From: Moraxella nasovis
GTDB lineage: Bacteria > Pseudomonadota > Gammaproteobacteria > Pseudomonadales > Moraxellaceae
Length of the DNA: 32,000 bases
Direction of reading: 5' to 3'
NCBI RefSeq assembly: GCF_022701215.1
Contig: NZ_CP089976.1
Span: 540,001-572,000, forward strand
Below, piece by piece: positions 16,159 through 26,834 of this stretch. Positions within the stretch are counted from its first letter, which is position 1. Each line of letters begins with the position of its first letter. The position numbers and the translations under genes are program-made. Under the pieces are notes generated by a model. It had not been told where the DNA came from. It saw nothing but the letters and a program-made list of their open reading frames with translations, and did no database searches.

Positions 16159-16509
16159 TCACTTTCCCTGCACTACATACATTCCCAAAGCCGTCAAAGC
16201 CAATGAACCCAAAACATGTAGCACAACCGCCATCAATGCCCCAAAAAACCGTCCGTTTTGGATCAGCGTTACCACTTCTAATGAAAAACTAGAAAAAGTC
16301 GTCAGCCCACCCAAAAAGCCTGTGATCAATAGCAGTTTATAGTGCGGATTATCCAGCCATTGTGCCAGTACACCAATCAAAAACGCCCCAAGCCAGTTCG
16401 CCGTCAGCATTCCAAGCGATAATGCCGTCTGCCCGCTCCATTGACTAAGTCCCCAACGCAGTACCGCCCCAGAGCCACCGCCTATTGCAACCATCAGCAG
16501 ATTATACAT
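16159..16509 (-). CDS. crcB: Fluoride ion channel CrcB/FluC
   Basis: About 116 aa with four TM segments. Motifs include AIGGGSGAVLRW and GFLGGLTTFSSF. The ATG at 16509 lies 2 nt after the DUF6428 stop. Confidence 0.88.
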   Translation of the reverse strand: MYNLLMVAIGGGSGAVLRWGLSQWSGQTALSLGMLTANWLGAFLIGVLAQWLDNPHYKLLLITGFLGGLTTFSSFSLEVVTLIQNGRFFGALMAVVLHVLGSLALTALGMYVVQGK

Positions 16510-16511
16510 AA

Positions 16512-16979
16512 TTAACAGCACCCTGAATTAGGCTTACAGACTTGACCAAATTCTGAAAGTTTCATTTTGGATTTTTGTGGCTTGGCAGGAATACCGCATT
16601 GGTCTTCGGCAAGGCAGACAGTGTGTTTATTTTTGAGTAAAAAATGTGTGCCGTCAAATGCTAAATCATATTTACCAATGGTATCACATTGGTATTCTAC
16701 CTCGATCTCTACATCAGGTAAATTGAGCTTTTCTTCGGAAAGTTTGATGATATCAAGTAGCTTGTATGCTTTTAGCCTATGGTCAAAATCATCGGCAGTC
16801 CACAACTGAAAATTAACAGTATTTTCTTGTCTAACCGTGCCACCACAATCAATAAAATGCTGACTAATTAGCCCCACTTCGGTAACGTGAAAATGTGGTG
16901 GCACTGTCGTACCGTCTTCTAGTATAAACGAGATGTTATCAACAGAACCCAAGATGTCTTTGATTTGTGAGAGTTTCAT
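16512..16979 (-). CDS. DUF6428-like protein (family commonly seen in ars clusters), Cys-rich C-terminus
   Basis: 155 aa. It reads MKLSQIKDIL...PPHFHVTEVG and ends in CKPNSGCC. The family assignment is from memory of ars-cluster neighbours and has not been searched. Confidence 0.6.
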   Translation of the reverse strand: MKLSQIKDILGSVDNISFILEDGTTVPPHFHVTEVGLISQHFIDCGGTVRQENTVNFQLWTADDFDHRLKAYKLLDIIKLSEEKLNLPDVEIEVEYQCDTIGKYDLAFDGTHFLLKNKHTVCLAEDQCGIPAKPQKSKMKLSEFGQVCKPNSGCC

Positions 16980-17040: not shown

Positions 17041-18042
17041 CTAATTTTTCCCCCGATTGATCAGCCACACCAGCGACAACATCACAGGCACTTCCACCAG
17101 CACCCCCACCACCGTTGCCAATGCCGCCCCAGAGTGCAGGCCAAATAGAGATATCGCCACCGCTACGGCAAGTTCAAAAAAGTTGCTCGTGCCAATCAAG
17201 CAGGCGGGAGCAGAGATTTCGTGCGGTAATTTAAGCCATTTGGCAATTCCCATACTCAAAAAGAAAATGCCATAGGTCTGCACTAAAAGTGGAATGGCAA
17301 TCAGCACAATCACAAACGGATTTGACAAAATCGTACCTGCTTGAAAAGCAAACAACAGCACCACTGTCAAAAGCAAGCCAAAGATGGAAAAGGGCTTTAA
17401 TTTGGCGGTGAATTTAGCGATAGAGCGGTCAGATTTGATTAAAATTTTGCGAGTTAGCCAGCCTGCGACAAGGGGCAAAAGCACATACAAAACCGTGCTT
17501 ACAATCAAGGTCTGCCAAGGAATACTAATGTCGCTTACACCAAGTAGCAAGCCTGCAATCGGTGCAAAGGCAAAAATCATAATGATGTCGTTCACCGACA
17601 CCTGCACGAGTGTGTAGTTCGGATCGCCCTTGACCAACCCAGACCACACAAACACCATCGCCGTACACGGAGCCACGCCGAGCAAAATCATACCTGCGAT
17701 GTATTCTTGTGCCGTCTGTGCGTCCACCCAATCAGCAAACAGCAACCGAAAAAACAGCCAACCGACCAGAGCCATCGTAAAGGGCTTAATCAGCCAATTT
17801 ACTGCCAAAGTCATCGCCAAGCCCTTCGGCTTTTTGCCGACATCTTTGATGGCAGACCAGTCAATCTGAATCATCATCGGATAAATCATCAGCCAAATCA
17901 GCACGGCAATCGGCAAATTGATGTGGGCGATTTGTAGTGTCGCAATCTTTCCCACCGTATCAGTGAAATTAACCCCAATGACCACGCCCAAAATGATGGC
18001 AAGAGCCACCCAAATACTTAAAAATCGTTCAAAATTTCCCAT
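17041..18042 (-). CDS. acr3: Arsenite efflux transporter, ACR3 family
   Basis: I prefer the start at [12 protein letters not shown] (ATG ending at 18042, with GGAG upstream), 1 nt after the arsC stop. It carries the conserved [12 protein letters not shown] motif and about 10 TM segments. Confidence 0.92.
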
Positions 18043-18043
18043 T

Positions 18044-18490
18044 TTATGCTCCTTGTTTTGGGTGTTGTTTGGTGATGATTTCGCCATCTTCTTTGACAAA
18101 ATCCGCTTTCAAAGGCACAGGCGAGATGTCCAAAAATACTTCGGACGGACGGCACAGTTTCACGCCCTTTTCGGTGACAACAATCGGGCGATTGATTAAA
18201 ATCGGCTGGGCAAGCATTGCCGAAATGAGCTTGTCATCAGACAGCTCTGGGCGTTCTAAATTTAAGCGTTCGTATGGTTCAACATTGGTGCGAAGTAGTG
18301 AGCGTGGTGTGATATTCATTTTGGCGATTAACTCACGCAAAGTCGCTTCATCAGGCGGATTGTCCAGATAATGAATGATGGTCGGCTCAATACCCAAATG
18401 GCGAATTAACGCCAAAGTGTTGCGGGACGTACCGCAGTTTGGGTTGTGGTAGATGGTGATTGGGGTGTTTGATGTATTAGCACTTGGCAT
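18044..18490 (-). CDS. arsC: Arsenate reductase, glutaredoxin-coupled ArsC family
   Basis: [20 protein letters not shown] provides the catalytic Cys. LINRPIVV and LCRPSE are also present. I prefer the ATG at 18490, which has a GGAGG SD 5 nt upstream. The ORF-track start at 18505 remains an alternative. Confidence 0.92.
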
Positions 18491-18582
18491 AGTGCCCTCC
18501 GTCATTAGTTTAATTATTCAAGAAATATTGAATTATAAAAGCAAAAATAACCTGATAAAGCCATCAGGTGAGATTTAAGCGC

Positions 18583-18626
18583 ATTTTAGCAGGGGTTTTT
18601 AGATATTTCAATGGTTATTGAAATAA
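18583..18626 (-). promoter_or_regulatory. ArsR-type promoter/operator, copy A (upstream of arsC; no arsR directly downstream)
   Basis: The minus strand reads TTGAAA (18606-18611), a 17-nt spacer, then TAAAAT (18583-18588). The inverted repeat ATATTTCAAT-GGTT-ATTGAAATA (18603-18626) overlaps the -35. It is paralogous to copies B and C. Confidence 0.6.
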
Positions 18627-18778
18627 AAGAGCGGTCGGAAATCGCAAAATTTTTGTAAAATCCTATCGCTTGTATTTTTCAAGCTGTCTGAAAAAACCTT
18701 GTTCGAATACTTGCAGGTGCTATCATCAATCTTCTAATTTGGTTTATTTGATGATATAAGGTCGTCTCTTTTGTTCAA

Positions 18779-19873
18779 TTAATTCGCAAAGTTCGTGGCT
18801 CTTTGTAAATCCAACTCCAACGGATTGGAAAGCTCACAAAACCATTTAGCCCATCGTTCTGATATAGACGTTAGAGATATTTCATCAAATAGAGTATTTT
18901 CAGATTGAATTGCAAAAAATCGATTTAGTGAATTAGCTAAATTTTTATTTTCTAAAAATCTTCTACAAATCCATAAATGAATATCTACTAATTGCAAGCC
19001 AACATTACTATCACTTGACTTATAATCTATATCTATTGATGGCATATTTGATAAGTTTATACTTGGTAAAAATGGACCAATTTGTAAATTTGTGTCTGTA
19101 CTATTACTGATATTTTGATATAGTTTAGTTAGCCAATTTTGTGATTTGTTAAATTGAGACTGAATATCCACAATAATTTTTGTTGCACTTGATTGATTTT
19201 GTTCAATTCTATGACAAATCATAAAAATTACTGATTGAAAGGATGTGATATTTGGTGAAACTTGTAATATATTTTCTTTGGAATGAACATTGTAACCAAT
19301 CTCGGAAGGATTTTTTATCACCCATTTCATTGCATCGGAAATAATCTCAACTAAGCGTTTATCTGAAAAACAAGATGCTTTAAGTAAAATTTGTTCACAA
19401 ATATCAACCAGACTAGTTTCTGTCTCTTTTGAATTTATATTTATGCGTGCTTTCCAAGCCTGATTAGCTAAATCATCATCAAATAACTCTGCGATTGCAA
19501 GTAGCAAAGGATATCTTAATGGTGTCCAATACCAATTCCAAGGAACAGCAGGATTAACACCTTGGTCGAAGACTTGGTCAAAAAAACTGATAATTGCAAA
19601 ATCTTTTTTATTTAGCCTACAACAATCAAAATATATGTCATATTTTTGATATATATCTCCTAAATCATCAATAATTCTAACTAATCCACCATTACCCAGC
19701 TCATTAGCATGCAATTCACTCACTGACAATTTATTCTTTAAATTTATAACATCCTGTTGGGCTACGATGTCTAAATCAAATTTAGAACTCAATACTCCGT
19801 AATATAAGTATGGTTGGTCTAAATCAAAAAGGTTTGAACCAGAATTACCACTCTCATCTATATAAAAATACAT
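18779..19873 (-). CDS. DUF3800-family protein, function unknown
   Basis: The start at MYFYIDESGNSG matches the DUF3800 N-terminal IDESG hallmark. A C-terminal GLQLVDIHLW segment resembles the family LQxAD motif. The gene is visibly much more AT-rich than its neighbours. The family call is from memory and has not been searched. Confidence 0.7.
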   Translation of the reverse strand: MYFYIDESGNSGSNLFDLDQPYLYYGVLSSKFDLDIVAQQDVINLKNKLSVSELHANELGNGGLVRIIDDLGDIYQKYDIYFDCCRLNKKDFAIISFFDQVFDQGVNPAVPWNWYWTPLRYPLLLAIAELFDDDLANQAWKARININSKETETSLVDICEQILLKASCFSDKRLVEIISDAMKWVIKNPSEIGYNVHSKENILQVSPNITSFQSVIFMICHRIEQNQSSATKIIVDIQSQFNKSQNWLTKLYQNISNSTDTNLQIGPFLPSINLSNMPSIDIDYKSSDSNVGLQLVDIHLWICRRFLENKNLANSLNRFFAIQSENTLFDEISLTSISERWAKWFCELSNPLELDLQRATNFAN

Positions 19874-19920
19874 AACAATCCCTAAAATGCGCTTATATTT
19901 TTTAGTTAGCCTACAAACGC

Positions 19921-20220
19921 TTAGCAATTCTCACCACTGTCCTGACAGCATTTGTCCGTCAAAAACACCACCAACGCCATCATCAAATCCAAATTGGCGT
20001 AATAACGCACAAACCGCCCTTGCTGTTCGCTTTGCACCAGCCCAGCATGGCTTAATGTTTTAAGATGAAAAGAAAGGCTGTTGGGGGCGATGCCCAGTAT
20101 TTTTGCCAAATCGCCTGCAATCATGCCCTCCGTTCCCATTTTGGTAAGTTCCTGAAAAATCGCCAAACGAATGGGCGATGACAGGCTTTCAAAGAGTAGG
20201 CTTGCGTTTTGAGTGTTCAT
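19921..20220 (-). CDS. arsR: ArsR/SmtB-family metalloregulator with a C-terminal Cys triad (copy 1)
   Basis: 99 aa wHTH protein ([26 protein letters not shown]). The C-terminus is CC-x6-C (KCCQDSGENC), resembling the Acidithiobacillus-type As(III) site. Confidence 0.88.
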   Translation of the reverse strand: MNTQNASLLFESLSSPIRLAIFQELTKMGTEGMIAGDLAKILGIAPNSLSFHLKTLSHAGLVQSEQQGRFVRYYANLDLMMALVVFLTDKCCQDSGENC

Positions 20221-20251
20221 GGCTTGTGTTTATCCGTTGGATTGAAGGGGT

Positions 20252-20295
20252 ATTTTAGCAAAGACGTACAGATATTTCAATGATGGTTGAAATGA
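20252..20295 (-). promoter_or_regulatory. ArsR-type promoter/operator, copy B (upstream of arsR copy 1)
   Basis: The minus strand reads TTGAAA (20275-20280), a 17-nt spacer, then TAAAAT (20252-20257). An imperfect inverted repeat ATATTTCAAT...TTGAAATGA lies at 20272-20295. Confidence 0.6.
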
Positions 20296-20310
20296 TGGGC
20301 GTTTTTATTT

Positions 20311-20325
20311 TTCAGGCAGCCTGAA
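20311..20325. repeat. Palindromic DUS-variant TTCAGGCAGCCTGAA
   Basis: It reads as AGGCAGCCTGAA on the plus strand and AGGCTGCCTGAA on the minus strand. Both are Neisseriaceae DUS dialect forms. Confidence 0.7.
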
Positions 20326-20351
20326 AACCCAAATTGAAAAACCAAAAAACA

Positions 20352-20418
20352 ATGCCGTCTGAAAGATTGGTTTTCAGACGGCATTTTGGCAAAAACCGAC
20401 CTTTCAGGCTGTCTGAAA
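20352..20418. repeat. Inverted pair of exact AT-DUS 12-mers (hairpin terminator of the CueR-like gene) plus a TTTCAGGCTGTCTGAAA palindrome
   Basis: ATGCCGTCTGAA lies at 20352-20363 and its reverse complement at 20373-20384. The palindrome lies at 20402-20418. Together they form a composite junction repeat. Confidence 0.85.
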
Positions 20419-20422
20419 CCGC

Positions 20423-20806
20423 TTACTGTAAATTTTGTAATATCGCACAATGTGAACGCTCATCGCCTGCACATTCGTCGTGCCACGCCTGCAAGGTATT
20501 TTTCATCTGTTCCAACTGGGCGATTTTTTGAGCCAACGTGGCGATATGGCTGGCGGTCAGGGCTTTGACATCACAGCTTTTGCGGTTGGGGTTGTCTTGC
20601 AAGGCGAGCAATTCGCCGATTTGTGCCAAGCCAAAGCCCACTTCTCGGGCGTGGTGGATAAAGTGAAGCCGTGCCAAATCCGCTTGTTTGTAATCACGGT
20701 AGCCTGAAAAGGTGCGTTCGGCAGGGGTAAGCAAGCCCAATTTTTCGTAATCTCGGATTTGTTTGCTGGATAGACCGGTGATTTTGGCGACTTCGCTGAT
20801 TTTCAT
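20423..20806 (-). CDS. MerR-family Cu(I)-type metalloregulator (CueR/HmrR-like)
   Basis: The internal start MKISEVAKITGLSSKQIRDYEKLGLL gives 127 aa. It has Ser77 in RKSCDVK and a C112-x7-C120 loop (CAGDERSHC), as in CueR. The ORF-track extension to 21103 crosses the promoter and was discarded. Confidence 0.88.
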   Translation of the reverse strand: MKISEVAKITGLSSKQIRDYEKLGLLTPAERTFSGYRDYKQADLARLHFIHHAREVGFGLAQIGELLALQDNPNRKSCDVKALTASHIATLAQKIAQLEQMKNTLQAWHDECAGDERSHCAILQNLQ

Positions 20807-20853
20807 GGTTTTTTCTCCTTTACAAAACGTAACATAAAAGTTTTGAAAAACCC

Positions 20854-20884
20854 TTGACCTTGACGCAAGGTTAAGGATTATTAT
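20854..20884 (+). promoter_or_regulatory. MerR-type promoter with a 19-bp spacer and dyad operator
   Basis: It reads TTGACC (20854-20859), a 19-nt spacer, then TATTAT (20879-20884). The dyad ACCTTG-ACG-CAAGGT sits inside the spacer, and CTTGACCTTGACGCAAGGTTAAG is a 23-bp near-palindrome. Confidence 0.75.
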
Positions 20885-20968
20885 ATGTCCATACACAGCA
20901 AAACAGCAATACTGCTTGTGTATCCGTCCAGAACATTCTGGTTTATCAATCCAAAACGGAGAAATGTT

Positions 20969-21097
20969 ATGAACATCAAAAACAAAACTTGCCAATGTCC
21001 CAACTGCCCTTGTGGCACACACAACGCCAACTGCACTTGCGTTTGCTGTGCGGACTGCCAATGCACTACCGAGCAATGCTCGTGCAACTGCCAATAA
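20969..21097 (+). CDS. 42-aa Cys-rich metallothionein-like peptide
   Basis: The peptide is MNIKNKTCQCPNCPCGTHNANCTCVCCADCQCTTEQCSCNCQ, with 13 Cys in 42 residues, no aromatic residues, and CxC/CC motifs. A GGAG SD lies 7 nt upstream. It sits about 80 nt downstream of the MerR-type promoter. Confidence 0.65.
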   Translation: MNIKNKTCQCPNCPCGTHNANCTCVCCADCQCTTEQCSCNCQ

Positions 21098-21203
21098 GGG
21101 CAAACGCTGTTTTTAAACAAGTCCATGCCAAGTCATCACGGCTTGGTATGGCAAACAAACCAACTTAATTTATCCATTTTTATCCATGCTTTAAGGAGCT
21201 GTT

Positions 21204-21647
21204 ATGAACAATTTAAAAAAATACCTTACCGTTGCCGTGCTGTCTGTGGCACTTGGCGGTGTGGGCGGATTTGCCATTGCCAATACCACCCAGCAAAATA
21301 ATATGTCGCAAATGCACGAAAACATGATGAACAATCACGCCAAAATGGGGGCGATGAACCACGACATGAATGCCATGAACCAAAATAAAGCCAACCAAGC
21401 ACCGCACACCCAAGAATATATGCAGTCGATGAACGCCCTGCACGATGAGATGATGGTAGGCGTTGCCGACAGCGATGCCGACCGAGCCTTTGCCCGCTCC
21501 ATGATACCGCACCATTTGGGGGCGATTAAGATGGCAGAAGTTCAGCTTAAATACGGCAAAGACCCAGAAATGCGAAAACTCGCTGAACAAATCATCAAAG
21601 CCCAAGACCCCGAAATCAAACAGATGGAGCAATGGCTCAAAAAATAA
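21204..21647 (+). CDS. DUF305-family (CopM-like) periplasmic Met/His-rich protein
   Basis: It has a signal peptide, a Met/His/Asn-rich N-terminal region, and the MIPHHLGAIKMAE motif typical of DUF305. Confidence 0.85.
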   Translation: MNNLKKYLTVAVLSVALGGVGGFAIANTTQQNNMSQMHENMMNNHAKMGAMNHDMNAMNQNKANQAPHTQEYMQSMNALHDEMMVGVADSDADRAFARSMIPHHLGAIKMAEVQLKYGKDPEMRKLAEQIIKAQDPEIKQMEQWLKK

Positions 21648-21717
21648 ACCTGTCGCCCGCCAAGCCAGCTGGTTTGGTCGGGCAAATCTTGCCTTTAAAT
21701 AGGATTTAGGAGTTTTT

Positions 21718-22209
21718 ATGCGTAGCATGAAAAAAGCATTGGCAACAGGCGTGTTAAGTGTTTCTATCATCGCAGGGGCGGTATCCTTGTTTGTCATGAA
21801 CCGCCCAGCACAAGCCGTCAATCATGTGGAAGTGTGGAAAGACGCCAATTGCGGTTGTTGTGGCGAATGGGTAGAACACATGAAGAAAAACGGCTTTACC
21901 GTGAGCGTCCACAACACGGGCAACCGTGAAATGCGTGCCAAGCTCGGTATGCCTGAAAAATTTGCGTCCTGCCACACCGCCAAAGTGGGCGGTTATGTGA
22001 TTGAAGGACACACGCCGGCATCCGACATCAAGCGTCTGCTCACACAAAAGCCTAATGCCCTAGGTCTGGCAACCCCCGCCATGCCACTTGGCTCGCCCGG
22101 TATGGACGGCGAAGCCTATCAGGGTAAAAAGCATGATTACAACGTGCTTTTGGTGCAAAAAGACGGCACCAGCCAAGTGTATCAGGCTTACAAGGGCAAC
22201 CAAAATTAA
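21718..22209 (+). CDS. DUF411-family (CopG-like) periplasmic copper-binding protein
   Basis: It has a signal peptide, the CGCC motif (DANCGCCGEW), the CHT motif, and MPLGSPGMD. Confidence 0.85.
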   Translation: MRSMKKALATGVLSVSIIAGAVSLFVMNRPAQAVNHVEVWKDANCGCCGEWVEHMKKNGFTVSVHNTGNREMRAKLGMPEKFASCHTAKVGGYVIEGHTPASDIKRLLTQKPNALGLATPAMPLGSPGMDGEAYQGKKHDYNVLLVQKDGTSQVYQAYKGNQN

Positions 22210-22214
22210 ACAAG

Positions 22215-22252
22215 AACGCTGTTTTAAAAACAGCGTTTTTTTCAGACGGCAT
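22215..22252 (+). terminator. Intrinsic terminator followed by an exact AT-DUS
   Basis: An AACGCTGTTTT / AAAACAGCGTT hairpin with a T-run spans 22215-22243. It is followed by TTCAGACGGCAT at 22241-22252. Confidence 0.8.
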
Positions 22253-22282
22253 AGATTTTTAATTTTCAGGCAGCCAAAACGG

Positions 22283-22687
22283 TCAAACTTCACAATTTTT
22301 TTGCAGTCCCGTTATCACTTTGCAATGTGCCACGTCGTTTTCTTGGCAACCTTGCAAGGCGGTCAGGTGGGCTTTCATGTGCTGTAATTGTGCGATTTGC
22401 TCGTCAATCCGTGCGATATGGCGAGTGAGCAGTTCGGTGGCGTTATCACAGCGGTTGTGCGGTTGGCTTTGCATTTGCTGTAAGGCTTTGATTTCTTCAA
22501 CAGAAAAACCGACATGACGGCAGTTTTTGATGAATTTTAGGGTGTCTGTCATTTCTTGGTTAAACAGCCGATAGCCGTTTTCGCCACGAATGGGGCTAAT
22601 CAGCCCCATTTTTTCATAATAACGGATACTTTCAAGCGACAAGCCGACTTGCTCGCTGACGGTTTTTACCTGCAATAAATTTTTCAT
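22283..22687 (-). CDS. MerR-family divalent-metal-type regulator (ZntR/CadR/PbrR-like)
   Basis: The start MKNLLQVKTVSEQVGLSLESIRYYEKMGL gives 134 aa. It has Cys80 (HNRC) plus C114-x7-C122, the Cys pattern of divalent-cation MerR sensors. Confidence 0.85.
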   Translation of the reverse strand: MKNLLQVKTVSEQVGLSLESIRYYEKMGLISPIRGENGYRLFNQEMTDTLKFIKNCRHVGFSVEEIKALQQMQSQPHNRCDNATELLTRHIARIDEQIAQLQHMKAHLTALQGCQENDVAHCKVITGLQKNCEV

Positions 22688-22694
22688 AAAACGC

Positions 22695-22725
22695 TTGACC
22701 TTGTTCCGACAACAGGGTTTATGAT
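22695..22725 (+). promoter_or_regulatory. MerR-type promoter with a 19-bp spacer (drives the CDF gene)
   Basis: It reads TTGACC (22695-22700), a 19-nt spacer, then TATGAT (22720-22725). The spacer holds an imperfect dyad ACCTTGTT-n5-AACAGGGT. Confidence 0.7.
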
Positions 22726-22759
22726 AAACCATAAACAGTTATTTTAAAAGGGTAAAATC

Positions 22760-23368
22760 ATGTCTTGCCAATGCTCTACGCAAAACAACGCCGTACACTC
22801 GGACAGATACCGCAATATATTGTGGATTGTGCTTATTCTCAATTTCTCCATGTTTTTTGTGGAAGTCTTTATCGGCTGGCGGTCTGGCTCGGTGTCCTTG
22901 CTGGCTGACAGCTTGGACTTTTTGGGCGACAGTGCCAACTATCTCATCACGCTGTTTGTGTTGGGCAAAACCTTGCAAACTCGTGCCAAAGCCAGCCTGA
23001 TTAAGGGTATTTCTATGGGGCTAATGGGGCTTTGGATTTTGTTTACAACTTTATACAATCTATTTATGGGCGATGTACCAAATTATCACGATATGGGCGT
23101 GGTCGGCTTACTTGCTTTGGCGGTCAATGTAACCGCAGCGTGGCTGTTGTACCATTTTCGTGAAGGCGACAGCAATATGCAAAGCGTTTGGCTGTGTTCT
23201 CGCAACGATGCCATTGGCAACGTGATGGTGGTTTTGGCGGCGGTTGCGGTGTATTTTAGCCAATCCAAAATCCCTGATTTGCTGGTGGCAGGCATTATGG
23301 TGTATTTATCACTATCTGCAAGCAAAGCAATCATCAGTAGAGCTTGGTCGGAGTTAAAGGAGCATTGA
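22760..23368 (+). CDS. Cation diffusion facilitator (CDF) family transporter, short form
   Basis: 202 aa with LLADSLDFLGDSANY (a TM2 DxxxD-type site), about 6 TM segments and an N-terminal MSCQCS. There appears to be no room for the usual C-terminal cytoplasmic domain. Confidence 0.82.
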   Translation: MSCQCSTQNNAVHSDRYRNILWIVLILNFSMFFVEVFIGWRSGSVSLLADSLDFLGDSANYLITLFVLGKTLQTRAKASLIKGISMGLMGLWILFTTLYNLFMGDVPNYHDMGVVGLLALAVNVTAAWLLYHFREGDSNMQSVWLCSRNDAIGNVMVVLAAVAVYFSQSKIPDLLVAGIMVYLSLSASKAIISRAWSELKEH

Positions 23369-23385
23369 GATTTGTCTAAAATAAA

Positions 23386-23421
23386 AACGCTGTTTTGCTC
23401 ATGAAAAACAGCGTTTTTTTT
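23386..23421 (+). terminator. Intrinsic terminator of the CDF gene
   Basis: The stem is AACGCTGTTTT (23386-23396), the loop is GCTCATG, and the partner arm is AAAACAGCGTT (23405-23415), followed by a T-run. It uses the same stem sequence family as the terminator at 22215. Confidence 0.8.
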
Positions 23422-23493
23422 CAGGCAGTCTGAAAGGTCGGTTTTACAAATATGCCGTCTGAAAATTTGTCCGAACGGGTTTTCAGACGGCAT
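23420..23493. repeat. Composite junction repeat: TTCAGGCAGTCTGAA palindrome plus an inverted pair of exact AT-DUS
   Basis: The palindrome lies at 23420-23434. ATGCCGTCTGAA lies at 23452-23463 and its reverse complement at 23482-23493. Confidence 0.85.
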
Positions 23494-23527
23494 GGGTTTC
23501 GTTGGGTCTTGACCCAACCTTGTATCT

Positions 23528-23728
23528 CACCACCAAGACTAGCTATCTTGGTGATGGCATGGTAGATTATACCATCACCCTAAGTTACTTGGCAGTTTCT
23601 ACCCAACCTGAGTACTTTGATGCTGTCTCGTAGATTAAACCCGAGTAACTTTTTAATCATCGTACAATCTGAATGGTATCCAAGCGCTTGATTGATTTTC
23701 AATCATGACGCTGAATGAACAAGGCTAG
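23528..23728 (+). ncRNA. Candidate IS110 bridge (guide) RNA in the left non-coding end
   Basis: Structure is visible by eye. CACCAAG (23531-37) can pair with CTTGGTG (23547-53). A GGTG..ATGGTA-loop-TACCAT-CACC hairpin spans 23550-23579. A TGATTGA-TTT-TCAATCA stem lies near 23690-23708. The position matches where IS110-group elements encode their bridge RNA. Confidence 0.4.
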
Positions 23729-24736
23729 ATGACAATGACTTATTATGTTGGTATTGATGTTAGTAAGCACAAGCTGGATGTGGCTTGGCTTAAAGAGTTA
23801 AGTACAATGAAAGTCAAAACCAAAGTCTTTAATAATCACTTTGATGATTTTGAACACATCATTCATTGGCTTAAAACCAATCTTGGTACAGATGTCAGCT
23901 TCAATGACATTCATCTTATTATGGAAGCCACAGGGGTGTATCATGAACCTTTGGCGTATTATTTACACGATTTGGGTTTTAAAGTCTCTATCATCAATCC
24001 TGCCTTTGTCAAGCACTATGCAGACAGTTTAGGCGTAAGACAAAAGACAGATAAAAAAGACAGTATTGTCCTTGCCAGATACGGCAGAGCCACCCACCCT
24101 GATGCTTGGATTGCCCCAAGTATTGAAGCTCGTCATTTAAAGTCTTTGCTTTCTCGTCTTGATGCTCTAAATGAAGACTTACAACGAGAAGAAAACCGCA
24201 AAGAAAAAGCAGAAGTGGCAGACACAACCCCCATTGTTAAACAATCCATTGATGAGATGATTGTGGCATTAAAATTGGCAATCAGCAAATTAAACCAAGA
24301 CATTGACACTCATATCAACAACCACCCCAAACTTAAAGAAGAGCAAACACTCTTACAAAGCATCAAAGGAGTAGGACAAGTCATTTCAAGACAAATGCTA
24401 ACTCTGTTTAATACCAAGCAATTTAACAATGCCAAACAAGTCTCTGCCTTTTTAGGGTTAATTCCCAAACAACAAGAATCAGGATTGTTTAAAGGCAGAT
24501 CAAGACTTGCCAAAACAGGCAATGCTCAATTAAGAGCTAAGCTATATATGGCAGCAGTTGTTGCCACCAAGTACAATCCAGACATTAAAGACCAATACGA
24601 ACGCTTACAACAAAATGGCAAATGCAAAATGCAAGCTTTATGTGCTTGTATGCGTAAATTGGTACAAATCTGCTTTGGTGTGATCAAACACCAAACTCCC
24701 TACACCCCACAAGTTAGGATAGAAAATATGGCTTGA
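23729..24736 (+). CDS. IS110-family transposase/recombinase
   Basis: 335 aa with the N-terminal YVGIDVSKHKLDV (DEDD RuvC-like domain) and the C-terminal LQSIKGVGQVISRQML...GLIPKQQESG (Tnp_20 domain). Confidence 0.92.
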   Translation: MTMTYYVGIDVSKHKLDVAWLKELSTMKVKTKVFNNHFDDFEHIIHWLKTNLGTDVSFNDIHLIMEATGVYHEPLAYYLHDLGFKVSIINPAFVKHYADSLGVRQKTDKKDSIVLARYGRATHPDAWIAPSIEARHLKSLLSRLDALNEDLQREENRKEKAEVADTTPIVKQSIDEMIVALKLAISKLNQDIDTHINNHPKLKEEQTLLQSIKGVGQVISRQMLTLFNTKQFNNAKQVSAFLGLIPKQQESGLFKGRSRLAKTGNAQLRAKLYMAAVVATKYNPDIKDQYERLQQNGKCKMQALCACMRKLVQICFGVIKHQTPYTPQVRIENMA

Positions 24737-24780
24737 CAAGGGGTGAGGAGAGATGGTATCTACAAGCTGAAAACCAATCT

Positions 24781-24826
24781 TTCAGACGGCATTTACTTTT
24801 GATTTAGGCTTTCAGACAGCCTGAAA
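24781..24826. repeat. Composite junction repeat: exact AT-DUS plus TTCAGACAGCCTGAA palindrome
   Basis: TTCAGACGGCAT lies at 24781-24792 and TTCAGACAGCCTGAAA at 24811-24826, just downstream of the SulP stop on the minus strand. Confidence 0.85.
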
Positions 24827-24836
24827 GCCCCACCAA

Positions 24837-26327
24837 TCAATGCCCCATCACAATATCCACATCTTCGGATTTGTCGTGTACACCGAATCTGTCCACGAGC
24901 GTTTGGCTGGCTTCGTTTAAGCCATATACACTCACATTCGCCCCTAATTTGCGGTATTTGATAACCACTTTATCTAAGGCTGAGATGGCAGTTACGTCCC
25001 AAAAGTGGGCGTGAGTCAAATCAATGCTGACATCGGTAATGCCTTGTTTGCCAAAGTTAAATTGGGCAATAAAATCATCGGCAGATGCAAAAAACACTTG
25101 TCCTACCACAGCATATGCCAAACTTTTGGGGCTGTCGGTCGGCAAGGTATTTATCACCATATAGCGTCCGATTTTGTTGGCAAAAAACAAAGCGGCGAGC
25201 AGCACGCCAGCAAATACACCCAGTGCCAAATTGTGCGTAAACACCACGATGGCGACCGTTACCACCATCACCACGTTAAAGCCGACAGGGTGGCTTTTAA
25301 GCTCTTTGATTGAAGCCCAATTAAATGTGCCGATAGACACCATAATCATCACCGCCACCAGTGCAGGCATTGGGATAATTTTGATTAAATCCGCCAAAAA
25401 CACCACCATAATCAGCAAATACACACCTGCCAAAAAGGTAGAAAGTCGTGTGCGACCGCCTGATTTGACGTTAATCACCGACTGCCCAATCATCGCACAG
25501 CCCGCCATTGCCCCCATTAAGCCTGACGCAATGTTAGCGATGCCTTGCCCTTTACATTCACGGTTTTTGTCGCTGTCGGTTTCGGTCATCTCGTCCACGA
25601 TGGTCGCCGTCATCAAGGATTCAAGCAGTCCCACCATCGCAAGGCTAAATGAATACGGCAAAATAATCCACAAGGTCTCCAAGTTTAGCGGTATATCAGG
25701 CAACAAAAATACAGGCAAGGTATCAGGCAGCTGCCCCATATCGCCCACTGTGCGTACATCAATGCCCAGTGCCACCGTCAAAGCGGTGAGCGTGATGATG
25801 GTAACGAGTGGCGATGGGATAATTTTGCCAAGTTTGGGAATATAAGGAAATAGATAAATAATCGCAAGACCCAATGCCACAAGGGCGTAAGTATGCCATG
25901 TTACACCCGTCAGCTCTGGCAGTTGTGCCATAAAAATCAAAATCGCCAAGGCGTTCACAAAGCCGATGACCACCGCCCGAGCCACAAATCGCATGAGCGA
26001 GCCAAGCTTTAAAAAGCCTGCGATAATCTGAATGACTCCTGTCAAAATCGTTGCCGCCAGCAGATACTCTAAACCGTGTTCTTTGACGAGTGTAACCATC
26101 ACGAGTGCCATCGCCCCTGTCGCTGCCGAAATCATCGCAGGACGACCGCCGACAAAGCTAATCACCACCGCAATACAAAATGACGCATACAGCCCCACTT
26201 TGGGGTCAACCCCTGCAATGATAGAAAAGGCAATCGCTTCTGGAATGAGTGCCAGCCCCACCACCAAGCCTGAGAGCATATCGCCACGCACATTACAAAA
26301 CCATTGCTGTTTTATGCTGTCAATCAA
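24837..26327 (-). CDS. SulP-family inorganic anion transporter with a C-terminal STAS domain
   Basis: Motifs include [26 protein letters not shown], many TM segments and a STAS-like tail ([26 protein letters not shown]). I prefer the TTG start at 26327, which has AGGAG 7 nt upstream. The ORF-track ATG at 26441 adds a non-homologous extension. Confidence 0.85.
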
Positions 26328-26460
26328 TGAAAAACTCCTAAAATCAACCAAAATCAAAAGGCATGGCCATCGCACGCCTAAAACAAAAAAACCAAGCCTT
26401 TGCTTGGCTAACTCACGCAGGTTTGCCCTACCGTCAATCAATCAAAAACAAACAACCACA

Positions 26461-26760
26461 CTAACAACGCCCGCCACTATCTTGACAGCATTCGTCCGTC
26501 AAAAAGCCTGCTAACTGCTTCATCAAATCCAAATTGGCATAATAACGCACGAACCGCCCCTGCTGTTCGCTACGCACTAAGTCTGCGTGGGTGAGCGTTT
26601 TTAGATGAAAGGATAAATTGTTGGGGGCGATGTCTAGTTTTTTGGATAAATCACCTGCCACCAGCCCAGATTTTCCTGCTCGTGTGAGCATTTGAAAAAT
26701 CGCCAAGCGAATGGGCGATGACAGACTTTCAAAAAGTTTGCTTGCGGTTTTGGGGTTCAT
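26461..26760 (-). CDS. arsR: ArsR/SmtB-family metalloregulator with a C-terminal Cys triad (copy 2)
   Basis: 99 aa and clearly paralogous to copy 1 ([27 protein letters not shown]-terminus [10 protein letters not shown]). It has the same orientation as copy 1. Confidence 0.88.
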
Positions 26761-26790
26761 AAGTGAAGATGCGTGCTGTTAAAAGGGGGT

Positions 26791-26834
26791 ATTTTAGCAG
26801 GGGCGAGATAATATTTCAATGATAATTGAAGTAT
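26791..26834 (-). promoter_or_regulatory. ArsR-type promoter/operator, copy C (upstream of arsR copy 2)
   Basis: The minus strand reads TTGAAA (26814-26819), a 17-nt spacer, then TAAAAT (26791-26796). The inverted repeat ATATTTCAAT-GATA-ATTGAAGTAT spans 26811-26834. Confidence 0.6.

Follow-up and report, generated by a model that had tools for sequence, protein, structure and literature searches.

The arsR and arsC genes of an arsenic resistance operon in Moraxella nasovis are separated by a gene of the DUF3800 family, which we analyzed within a stretch of 32,000 nt (NZ_CP089976.1, 540,001-572,000). This whole stretch is called the window below, and all positions are counted within it. The locus consists of the following genes and features.

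20252-20293, minus strand: P1, the promoter before arsR1, with the palindrome ATTTCAA-N6-TTGAAAT over the −35 element TTGAAA, a 17-nt spacer, and TG-n-TAAAAT
19921-20220, minus strand: arsR1, 99 aa, ArsR/SmtB family (HTH_20, HTH_5)
19874-19920, minus strand: 47-nt spacer, or 5′ untranslated region (UTR), from the arsR1 stop codon to the DUF3800 ATG
18779-19873, minus strand: DUF3800 open reading frame (ORF), 364 aa from ATG, guanine-plus-cytosine (GC) content 0.30, assigned with Pfam and by alignment of homologs
18744-18778, minus strand: out-of-frame remnant of the C-terminal tail (EQKRRPYIIK and a stop), from translation of the alternate frame
18627-18743, minus strand: 3′ flank of the cassette, with hairpins and a palindrome resembling a DNA uptake sequence (DUS)
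18583-18625, minus strand: P2, upstream of arsC, with the palindrome and promoter architecture of P1
18550-18569, minus strand: terminator-like hairpin between P2 and arsC, 8 bp followed by TATTTTTGCT
18517-18532, minus strand: fourth TTCAA-N6-TTGAA palindrome, immediately 5′ of the arsC start codon
18044-18490, minus strand: arsC, ArsC by Pfam
17041-18042, minus strand: acr3, SBF/Acr3 transporter, from the likely ATG
16512-16979, minus strand: DUF6428 gene, Pfam E = 2e-60
16159-16521, minus strand: crcB, CrcB by Pfam

Called mechanically, the DUF3800 ORF runs from 18779 to 19927 and encodes 382 aa from a TTG codon. Alignment with 15 homologs showed that translation instead begins with the ATG codon at position 19873, so that the protein begins MYFYIDESG, and a Shine-Dalgarno-like AGGGA lies in the 47-nt spacer 5 nt upstream of this codon. 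An initial annotation of the locus had described a 364-aa DUF3800-type ORF 47 bp after arsR; both its length and the gap were confirmed, although the span assigned to it (18627-19920) contains the gene together with 152 nt of 3′ flank. A profile hidden Markov model search placed the protein in Pfam PF12686 (DUF3800) with an E value of 3.3e-13 and 51 bits against a cutoff of 21, the match spanning residues 2 to 305 and profile positions 1 to 148 of 149, which is the entire model. The YIDESG and LQLVD motifs reported in that annotation were both found, the first as D6-E7 in MYFYIDESG and the second as Q294-L-V-D297 (the QxxD motif) in GLQLVD. Residue conservation was judged on 42 aligned DUF3800 sequences, across which D6 and D297 are invariant, and the protein has kept all of the invariant residues of its subfamily (among them D6, S8, G9, D83, K89, D91, D99, Q100, D103, D236, Q238, and D297). 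The gene is an additional member of a known, uncharacterized family.

The composition of the DUF3800 gene is foreign. Its GC content is 0.299 and its GC content at third codon positions (GC3) is 0.205, compared with 0.465 to 0.470 and 0.50 to 0.57, respectively, for arsR1, arsC, and acr3. The other genes of the island have GC contents of 0.37 to 0.52 and GC3 values of 0.32 to 0.60, and none but the DUF3800 gene falls below a GC content of 0.37 between 16 and 29 kb of the window, in agreement with the unusual AT richness first noted. Read at a resolution of 100 nt, the GC profile falls sharply at the arsR1 stop codon (~19920) and rises again at the start of arsC (~18490). The protein has 870 homologs, the best of which is 69% identical and comes from Actinobacillus; no relative above this identity was found among 5.8 billion proteins. 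Its nearest relatives are proteins of the Pasteurellaceae (63 to 69% identity), where the orthologous genes also have GC contents of ~0.29 in host genomes of 0.37 to 0.41.

We compared the locus with three related ars operons, those of Neisseria sp. CCUG12390, Actinobacillus vicugnae, and Moraxella sp. FZLJ2107 (loci L082, L083, and L084). In each of them arsR directly neighbors arsC, the gap measuring 121, 56, and 53 nt, respectively. The window ArsC, Acr3, and SulP proteins have their nearest counterparts in A. vicugnae (78, 84, and 81% identity), and the nearest relative of ArsR1 is a Moraxella ArsR (74%). Downstream of the DUF3800 gene, Pfam assigns ArsC, SBF/Acr3, DUF6428, and CrcB, as in the gene order originally annotated. 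The DUF6428 gene, which sits between acr3 and crcB and overlaps crcB by 10 nt, encodes a protein with a Cys-rich C terminus (...CKPNSGCC) and is an uncharacterized companion of the ars operon.

Relatives of the DUF3800 protein were collected in a GTDB-wide scan, which yielded 115 species, and 80 loci were fetched. Homologs of ArsC, Acr3, DUF6428, or CrcB were present within ~8 kb in 0 of 81 DUF3800 loci, so that a shared arsR-DUF3800-arsC order, the arrangement expected of an ancestral ars accessory gene, was looked for and not seen among them. All-against-all clustering of the ORFs in the fetched loci likewise gave no conserved neighbor of the gene, which in Actinobacillus equuli is a lone insertion flanked by a SpoU methylase gene and queF. 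Because arsR and arsC are adjacent in the relatives and none of the 81 loci carries ars structural genes, the DUF3800 gene is a foreign insertion rather than an ars accessory gene. The idea of a foreign cargo gene splitting arsR from its structural genes thus fits both the adjacency of arsR and arsC in the three relatives and the foreign GC content. A functional accessory recruited for arsenic tolerance, for example, for the repair of arsenic-induced nucleic acid damage, would account for the position of the gene inside an ars operon and its probable cotranscription with arsR1, and functionally uncharacterized genes do collect in ars operons, the DUF6428 gene being one in this operon. The comparative data largely refute such a role, since ars structural genes are lacking at every homologous locus, there is no conserved neighbor of any kind, the gene is missing from the three related ars operons, and its composition is foreign even against the ars genes; we consider this explanation extremely improbable.

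Promoters were called with a consensus scan. P1 and P2 each scored 10 of 12 with an extended −10 element, and in both the −35 element lies inside ATTTCAA-N6-TTGAAAT (−35 to −10 at 20280-20252 in P1 and at 18611-18583 in P2). Four copies of the core of this palindrome, TTCAA-N6-TTGAA, are present in the window (18517-18532, 18607-18622, 20276-20291, and 26815-26830), against 0.62 occurrences expected by chance, and 0 of 100 shuffles reached four. All four copies, of which the initial annotation had counted two, lie in ars promoter regions. The palindrome-plus-promoter layout also precedes arsR in Neisseria sp. CCUG12390, A. vicugnae, and Moraxella sp. FZLJ2107, and all three carry a related palindrome directly before arsC. 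From this positioning and conservation, we infer that the palindromes are ArsR operators, and ATTTCAA-N6-TTGAAAT offers a useful candidate for the ArsR operator in the ars operons of Moraxella, Neisseria, and the Pasteurellaceae.

The second ArsR promoter that had been annotated before arsC is real and has the architecture of P1, but it is not a by-product of the insertion, given that a further copy precedes a second arsR gene (arsR2, described below) and that the relatives have their own palindromes. P2 is instead an old, diverged paralog of P1, because the two promoters share only 71% identity over 45 nt and because P2 carries an extra hairpin region and has counterparts in the palindromes before arsC in the relatives. 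The hairpin region by P2 (~18630-18676, ~46 nt) resembles an inverted uptake-sequence-like hairpin before A. vicugnae arsR. Elsewhere in the 3′ flank of the cassette, a 9-bp hairpin overlaps the ancestral DUF3800 stop codon and a degenerate DUS-like palindrome lies at 18677-18697; the fold z score of this flank is modest (−1.85). The hairpin at 18550-18569, which is weak and falls in the predicted leader, could be an attenuator or the leftover terminator of a lost arsR copy.

ArsR1 itself matches NF033788 with 59.9 bits against a cutoff of 55 and bears Cys91, Cys92, and Cys99 near its C terminus, a triad that we take to be akin to the As(III) site of Acidithiobacillus ArsR. The consensus scan found no minus-strand promoter-like or terminator-like site from arsR1 to the DUF3800 stop codon, and for this reason arsR1 and the DUF3800 gene are likely to be cotranscribed and inducible by arsenite. 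The earlier statement that the gene lies under an arsenic-responsive regulator stands in this conditional form, drawn from a 47-nt spacer free of promoter and terminator.

The DUF3800 gene may not be intact. Its homologs are ~376 aa long and end in ...LVEERRxPxIIK, and the window ORF terminates 12 residues sooner. A 1-nt deletion near 18779-18782, within a short T run, yields the current TAA stop codon, and the missing tail can still be read one frame over as EQKRRPYIIK and a stop (18776-18744). The E and R of this tail are at least 90% conserved, and family matches extend to profile position ~372. In an AlphaFold 2 (AF2) model of the protein, the last helix comprises residues 353 to 363, and the lost tail is predicted to be peripheral. 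The frameshift represents early decay of the gene or else an error in sequencing. One explanation of the locus takes it as the first lesion in a gene that was carried in by chance on plasmid or transforming DNA, gives no benefit, and is becoming a pseudogene. In keeping with such a hitchhiker, 12 conserved residues have been lost, the gene is a singleton whose best relative is 69% identical, and the region around it is a mosaic that includes an IS110 element and uptake sequences of the Neisseria type that were imported. Against it, 364 codons are still open at 30% GC, all of the invariant subfamily residues have been kept, the frameshift falls in a T run where it could be a sequencing error, and the lost tail is peripheral in the AF2 model. 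We regard this explanation as rather unlikely.

A 22-nt direct repeat lies at the junction with arsR1. One copy (19895-19916) is in the spacer and begins 5 nt past the arsR1 stop codon, and the other (19601-19622) is within the DUF3800 coding sequence, where its codons encode CCRLNKKD; the two are identical at 20 of 22 positions. No such repeat arose in 300 shuffles, and among 79 loci it is present only in the window. The repeat may be filler DNA from illegitimate recombination, and a copy of an internal segment in the 5′ flank that resembles junction filler would also suit the arrival of a hitchhiker. As a 5′-UTR feature of the DUF3800 family, it was rejected because it is unique to the window.

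Many transposases share an RNase H-like DDE fold, and the DUF3800 protein might itself be a transposase-like or homing enzyme that inserted its own gene into the arsR-arsC spacer. The lone insertion between housekeeping genes in A. equuli and the very patchy distribution of the gene would suit such a selfish element, as would a 17-nt inverted repeat (16 of 17 positions) that brackets the cassette at 18573-18589 and 19882-19898. This inverted repeat is not significant, however, because 65 of 300 shuffles yielded one like it, and the three closest DUF3800 loci showed no inverted repeats in their flanks. Furthermore, the gene is single copy in all but one of 82 loci scanned, and its flanks lack family-wide conservation. 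We saw no shared terminal repeats with target site duplications and no multiple identical copies per genome. We therefore rejected the cassette as an insertion sequence (IS) or transposon, its sole flanking inverted repeat being at chance level and the gene single copy, and we hold self-insertion to be very unlikely.

At 50% identity, a profile search gave 774 representative clusters, almost all of which are single-domain, full-length matches of ~375 aa, with a patchy distribution in the Proteobacteria. The subfamily was found on 2,014 of 72,556 plasmid records in PLSDB (~2.8%), 1,108 of them conjugative, and its carriers were chiefly plasmids of Escherichia (1,000), Klebsiella (653), and Salmonella (291). 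Abortive infection (Abi)-like genes stand beside the DUF3800 gene on two plasmids, one an IncFII plasmid of E. coli and the other a Psychrobacter MOBQ plasmid of 9 kb, and a HEPN nuclease gene and a DUF4238 gene do so on a Klebsiella IncR plasmid and an Escherichia albertii IncF plasmid. The 149 immediate chromosomal neighbors include short prokaryotic Argonautes (pAgo; four), LmuB (two), IetS (two), and PDC-S14 (two), as well as DNA methyltransferases, HipA, P4-type integrases, and an AriA/OLD-like ATPase. Homologs thus occur recurrently near defense genes (pAgo, IetAS, LmuB, Abi, HEPN, and DUF4238), as judged by raw counts.

The short pAgo proteins (468 to 515 aa; PADLOC pAgo_I, E values down to 2e-181) were seen near the DUF3800 gene in four loci. 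In two of these, from a Caulobacterales and a Litorimonas metagenome-assembled genome (L075:4037-8085 and L077:1745-5736), a partner gene, the pAgo gene, and the DUF3800 gene follow one another on one strand with gaps of 16 to 28 nt; in the other two, both from Maritimibacter (L066 and L067), the pAgo and DUF3800 genes are convergent. An IetAS-type pair, consisting of an AAA ATPase of ~330 aa and an S8 subtilase of ~830 aa, adjoins the DUF3800 gene in four loci (L028, L068, L069, and L080) from unrelated alpha- and betaproteobacteria, in both orientations. The large neighbors of ORF cluster 6 were at one point candidates for Argonautes and were rejected as such, being the S8 subtilases of IetAS; the pAgo proteins form cluster 5. 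Since the partners differ between loci, they fit a resident of defense islands better than a dedicated subunit of one system. The relatives reside on plasmids or among anti-phage genes and never with arsenic genes, and for this reason the arsenic link of the window gene appears positional and accidental.

In the Enterobacteriaceae, the DUF3800 gene is always followed, 15 to 20 nt on and on the same strand, by a conserved gene of 94 to 97 aa. The pair was seen in E. coli pCV839-15-p3 (L085), Klebsiella pneumoniae pCAV1016-90 (L086), and E. albertii pEA22_3 (L088), as well as in L042, L045, L049, L050, and L052. The product of the second gene has no Pfam match and one annotation as "putative korC," and a HEPN nuclease gene and a DUF4238 gene are often close. 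An addiction or toxin-like module, in which a toxic or immunity protein silenced by ArsR stabilizes the island, or the plasmids of the relatives, would fit with the high frequency of the subfamily on conjugative plasmids, where ccdAB and Abi genes lie nearby. A variable-region DUF3800 gene of Legionella, moreover, scored as essential in transposon sequencing, alongside antitoxins (bioRxiv 10.1101/2020.10.01.323287). Such a module is difficult to reconcile with the lack of a conserved partner gene across the subfamily, the 94-aa downstream gene being conserved only in the Enterobacteriaceae and missing here, and the subfamily is known here from sequence alone. We judge this explanation unlikely.

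The AF2 model, built from the 42-sequence alignment, has a mean predicted local distance difference test (pLDDT) score of 92 and a predicted template modeling (pTM) score of 0.88. It shows a beta-beta-(alpha-alpha)-beta-alpha core and a helical insertion of ~115 residues (112 to 226), followed by a second beta-alpha-beta-alpha unit that bears D236 and D297. This order of strands and helices is compatible with an RNase H-like fold and is no proof of one. A search of BFVD gave as its only match another DUF3800 protein (E = 3.8e-4), and NCBIfam and PHROGs gave no useful match.

Taken together, these results incline us to a reading in which a DUF3800 gene of the plasmid- or island-borne kind was acquired horizontally and inserted into the ars operon, where its link to arsenic is one of position and its product is likely to be a nuclease acting in defense or against mobile elements. 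In this scheme, a stand-alone gene would have entered the short arsR-arsC spacer of an operon that itself lies in a mosaic metal resistance region of the Moraxella chromosome. The subfamily would travel on plasmids and genomic islands, usually near anti-phage or abortive infection genes, and would function as a nucleic acid-targeting enzyme in defense or in competition between mobile elements. A bicistronic arsR1-DUF3800 transcript would arise from ArsR-repressed P1 and be induced by arsenite, and arsC-acr3-DUF6428-crcB would remain under the control of the same repressors through its own, older promoter, P2.

Several results weigh against this reading. Despite the confident model, the best Foldseek match in the PDB had an E value of only 1.4; a profile search of PDB sequences returned nothing for the protein, and hhalign gave no match to an E. 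coli RNase HII sequence. The nuclease or RNase H-like active site proposed around the IDESG motif was consequently not confirmed by a fold match, and, because the fold and profile searches were negative here, the assignment derives by analogy from published predictions for other DUF3800 subfamilies. No model in PADLOC-DB v2 matched the protein at an E value of ≤1, the subfamily was absent from all 50,697 phage records surveyed, and the tallies of defense neighbors are raw counts. The window copy may be partly disabled, because the frameshift has deleted a conserved C-terminal tail of 12 residues. Finally, the databases hold no close relative of the genome, so that neither the exact insertion boundaries nor the preinsertion state was directly observed. 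A defense-type role, as first suggested for the gene, accordingly has circumstantial backing from the neighborhoods of homologs but no match to a PADLOC model or to a PDB fold; a role as a defense or anti-mobile-element nuclease is plausible.

A more far-reaching proposal, which we make tentatively and consider doubtful, is that the stand-alone DUF3800 protein of ~375 aa is an unrecognized single-gene anti-phage or anti-plasmid nuclease that has come to lie, here, behind an ArsR-repressed promoter and to be induced by metalloids. If this is true, an immune or toxic gene would be switched on by metalloid stress, from a subfamily that is missing from PADLOC v2. The compact stand-alone subfamily is frequent on conjugative plasmids of enterobacteria, and its members stand beside Abi, HEPN, DUF4238, pAgo, IetAS, and Lamassu genes; this prevalence and these neighbors make it a reasonable candidate for defense screening. 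The window locus is an anecdote in comparison, a slightly truncated copy in an ars operon that is probably inducible by arsenite, with no evidence of new biology; it does offer a convenient natural inducible DUF3800 allele.

Three further features belong to a second ars unit in the window.

26786-26830, minus strand: operator/promoter of arsR2, the third copy of the P1-type site
26461-26760, minus strand: arsR2, ArsR/SmtB family (HTH_20, HTH_5), 75% identical to ArsR1
24837-26441, minus strand: SulP transporter gene (SulP/STAS), following arsR2

In A. vicugnae (L083), a SulP protein of 81% identity is encoded inside an arsR-arsC-sulP-acr3 operon. The arsR2-sulP arrangement suggests either the splitting of an ancestral operon or a role of SulP with arsenic or antimony. 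Exact-sequence lookups of ArsR1, ArsC, and the DUF3800 protein found no other contig; ThyA, BioF, ArsR1, ArsR2, and the DUF6428 protein are singleton clusters at 90% identity, and the best ArsC match is 79% identical.

The window contains six canonical Neisseria uptake sequences (GCCGTCTGAA), all within 20354-24790, a segment that encodes merR, DUF305, DUF411, a second merR, a CDF (cation efflux) gene, and IS110. Several of these GCCGTCTGAA copies form inverted terminator pairs. No intact uptake signal sequence of the Haemophilus or Actinobacillus type was found in the window. The segment looks as if it was imported from Neisseria into a Moraxella genome. Because the Neisseria uptake sequences are confined to 20354-24790 and the cluster of the S21 ribosomal protein encoded in the window holds Moraxella sequences only, the region is a mosaic of imported metal resistance modules in a Moraxella chromosome of ~2.03 Mb. 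A host from the Neisseriaceae, to which the uptake sequences might have pointed, was rejected on these two grounds. A Type III restriction-modification system, which had been offered as a hint of a defense role, has its mod gene starting at 27223, 7.35 kb from the DUF3800 gene, and its proximity is uninformative because metal resistance genes and the IS110 element intervene. A tandem heptanucleotide tract at 27169-27210 (GAATTGC/TTCGCAA, ~6 copies), ~10 to 55 nt before the start of the mod ORF, resembles a phase variation repeat.

DUF3800 is a widespread, uncharacterized predicted nuclease that published work has connected with eleven orphan RNA motifs, with retrons, and with loci of Cas12a2/a3 and Cas13. 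The structured RNA motifs found near DUF3800 genes (Weinberg et al. 2017, PMC5737381), namely, DUF3800-I to -XI, together with the drum and skipping-rope RNAs (PMC5737381), accompany the same protein family. In the window and in nine related loci, every Rfam family stayed below its gathering score. Under permissive scoring, the RNA matches within 18300-20500 were all at chance level, and an all-against-all blastn comparison of the flanks of 78 DUF3800 loci showed conservation solely within small groups of close relatives. With no Rfam family at gathering score and no conserved flanks, the locus was rejected as a site of a known DUF3800-associated RNA.

In clustered regularly interspaced short palindromic repeat (CRISPR) systems, a TPR-DUF3800 protein is associated with Cas12a2 (Altae-Tran et al. 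2023, PMC10910872), and DUF3800 has been described as a nuclease of RNase H fold that is accessory to V-A2 and VI-F loci (PMC12669027). The TPR-DUF3800 proteins of Cas12a2/Cas12a3 (V-A2) and VI-F loci share the DUF3800 domain with the window protein, and the papers on them predict an RNase H-fold nuclease in an immune context (PMC10910872, PMC12669027, and bioRxiv 10.64898/2026.01.16.699850). Unlike them, the window protein has a single Pfam domain and no TPR, and the window is without cas genes or a CRISPR array, no CRISPR repeat family scoring above threshold in it. In type VII retrons (Mestre et al. 2020, PMC7736814), DUF3800 serves as the effector, either alone or fused to a reverse transcriptase. 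These effectors resemble the window protein in their Pfam domain and DE motif and in the RNase H2-like catalytic core that has been proposed. The retron proteins, which fall into clades of their own, are missing the Q of QxxD (PMC7736814), whereas the window protein has this Q and carries the helical insertion of ~115 residues at 112 to 226. No reverse transcriptase domain was found among the window ORFs, and no msr/msd was matched by Rfam.

The ars genes around the insertion closely resemble those of the arsR-arsC-acr3 operons of Moraxella, Neisseria, and Actinobacillus (ArsC, 72 to 78% identity; Acr3, 78 to 84%; ArsR, 62 to 74%), and the two also have in common the C-terminal Cys triad of ArsR, the palindrome over the −35 element, and the second palindrome before arsC. 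They differ in that arsR and arsC are ~1.4 kb apart in the window, separated by AT-rich DNA with the DUF3800 gene and a full second promoter, and in that sulP, internal to the A. vicugnae operon, is paired here with a second arsR 6.5 kb away. Among known DUF3800 proteins, the closest are those of the stand-alone subfamily of ~375 aa, which carry the annotation "DUF3800 domain-containing protein" and are represented in A. vicugnae, A. equuli, and enterobacterial IncF/IncR plasmids. The window copy is the only one in an ars operon, its last 12 residues are missing, and the 94-aa downstream gene of the Enterobacteriaceae members is missing at its locus. With these members it nevertheless shares full-length homology (43 to 69% identity), the N-terminal FYxDESG and C-terminal QxxD/ExxD motifs, a single domain, and the same length.

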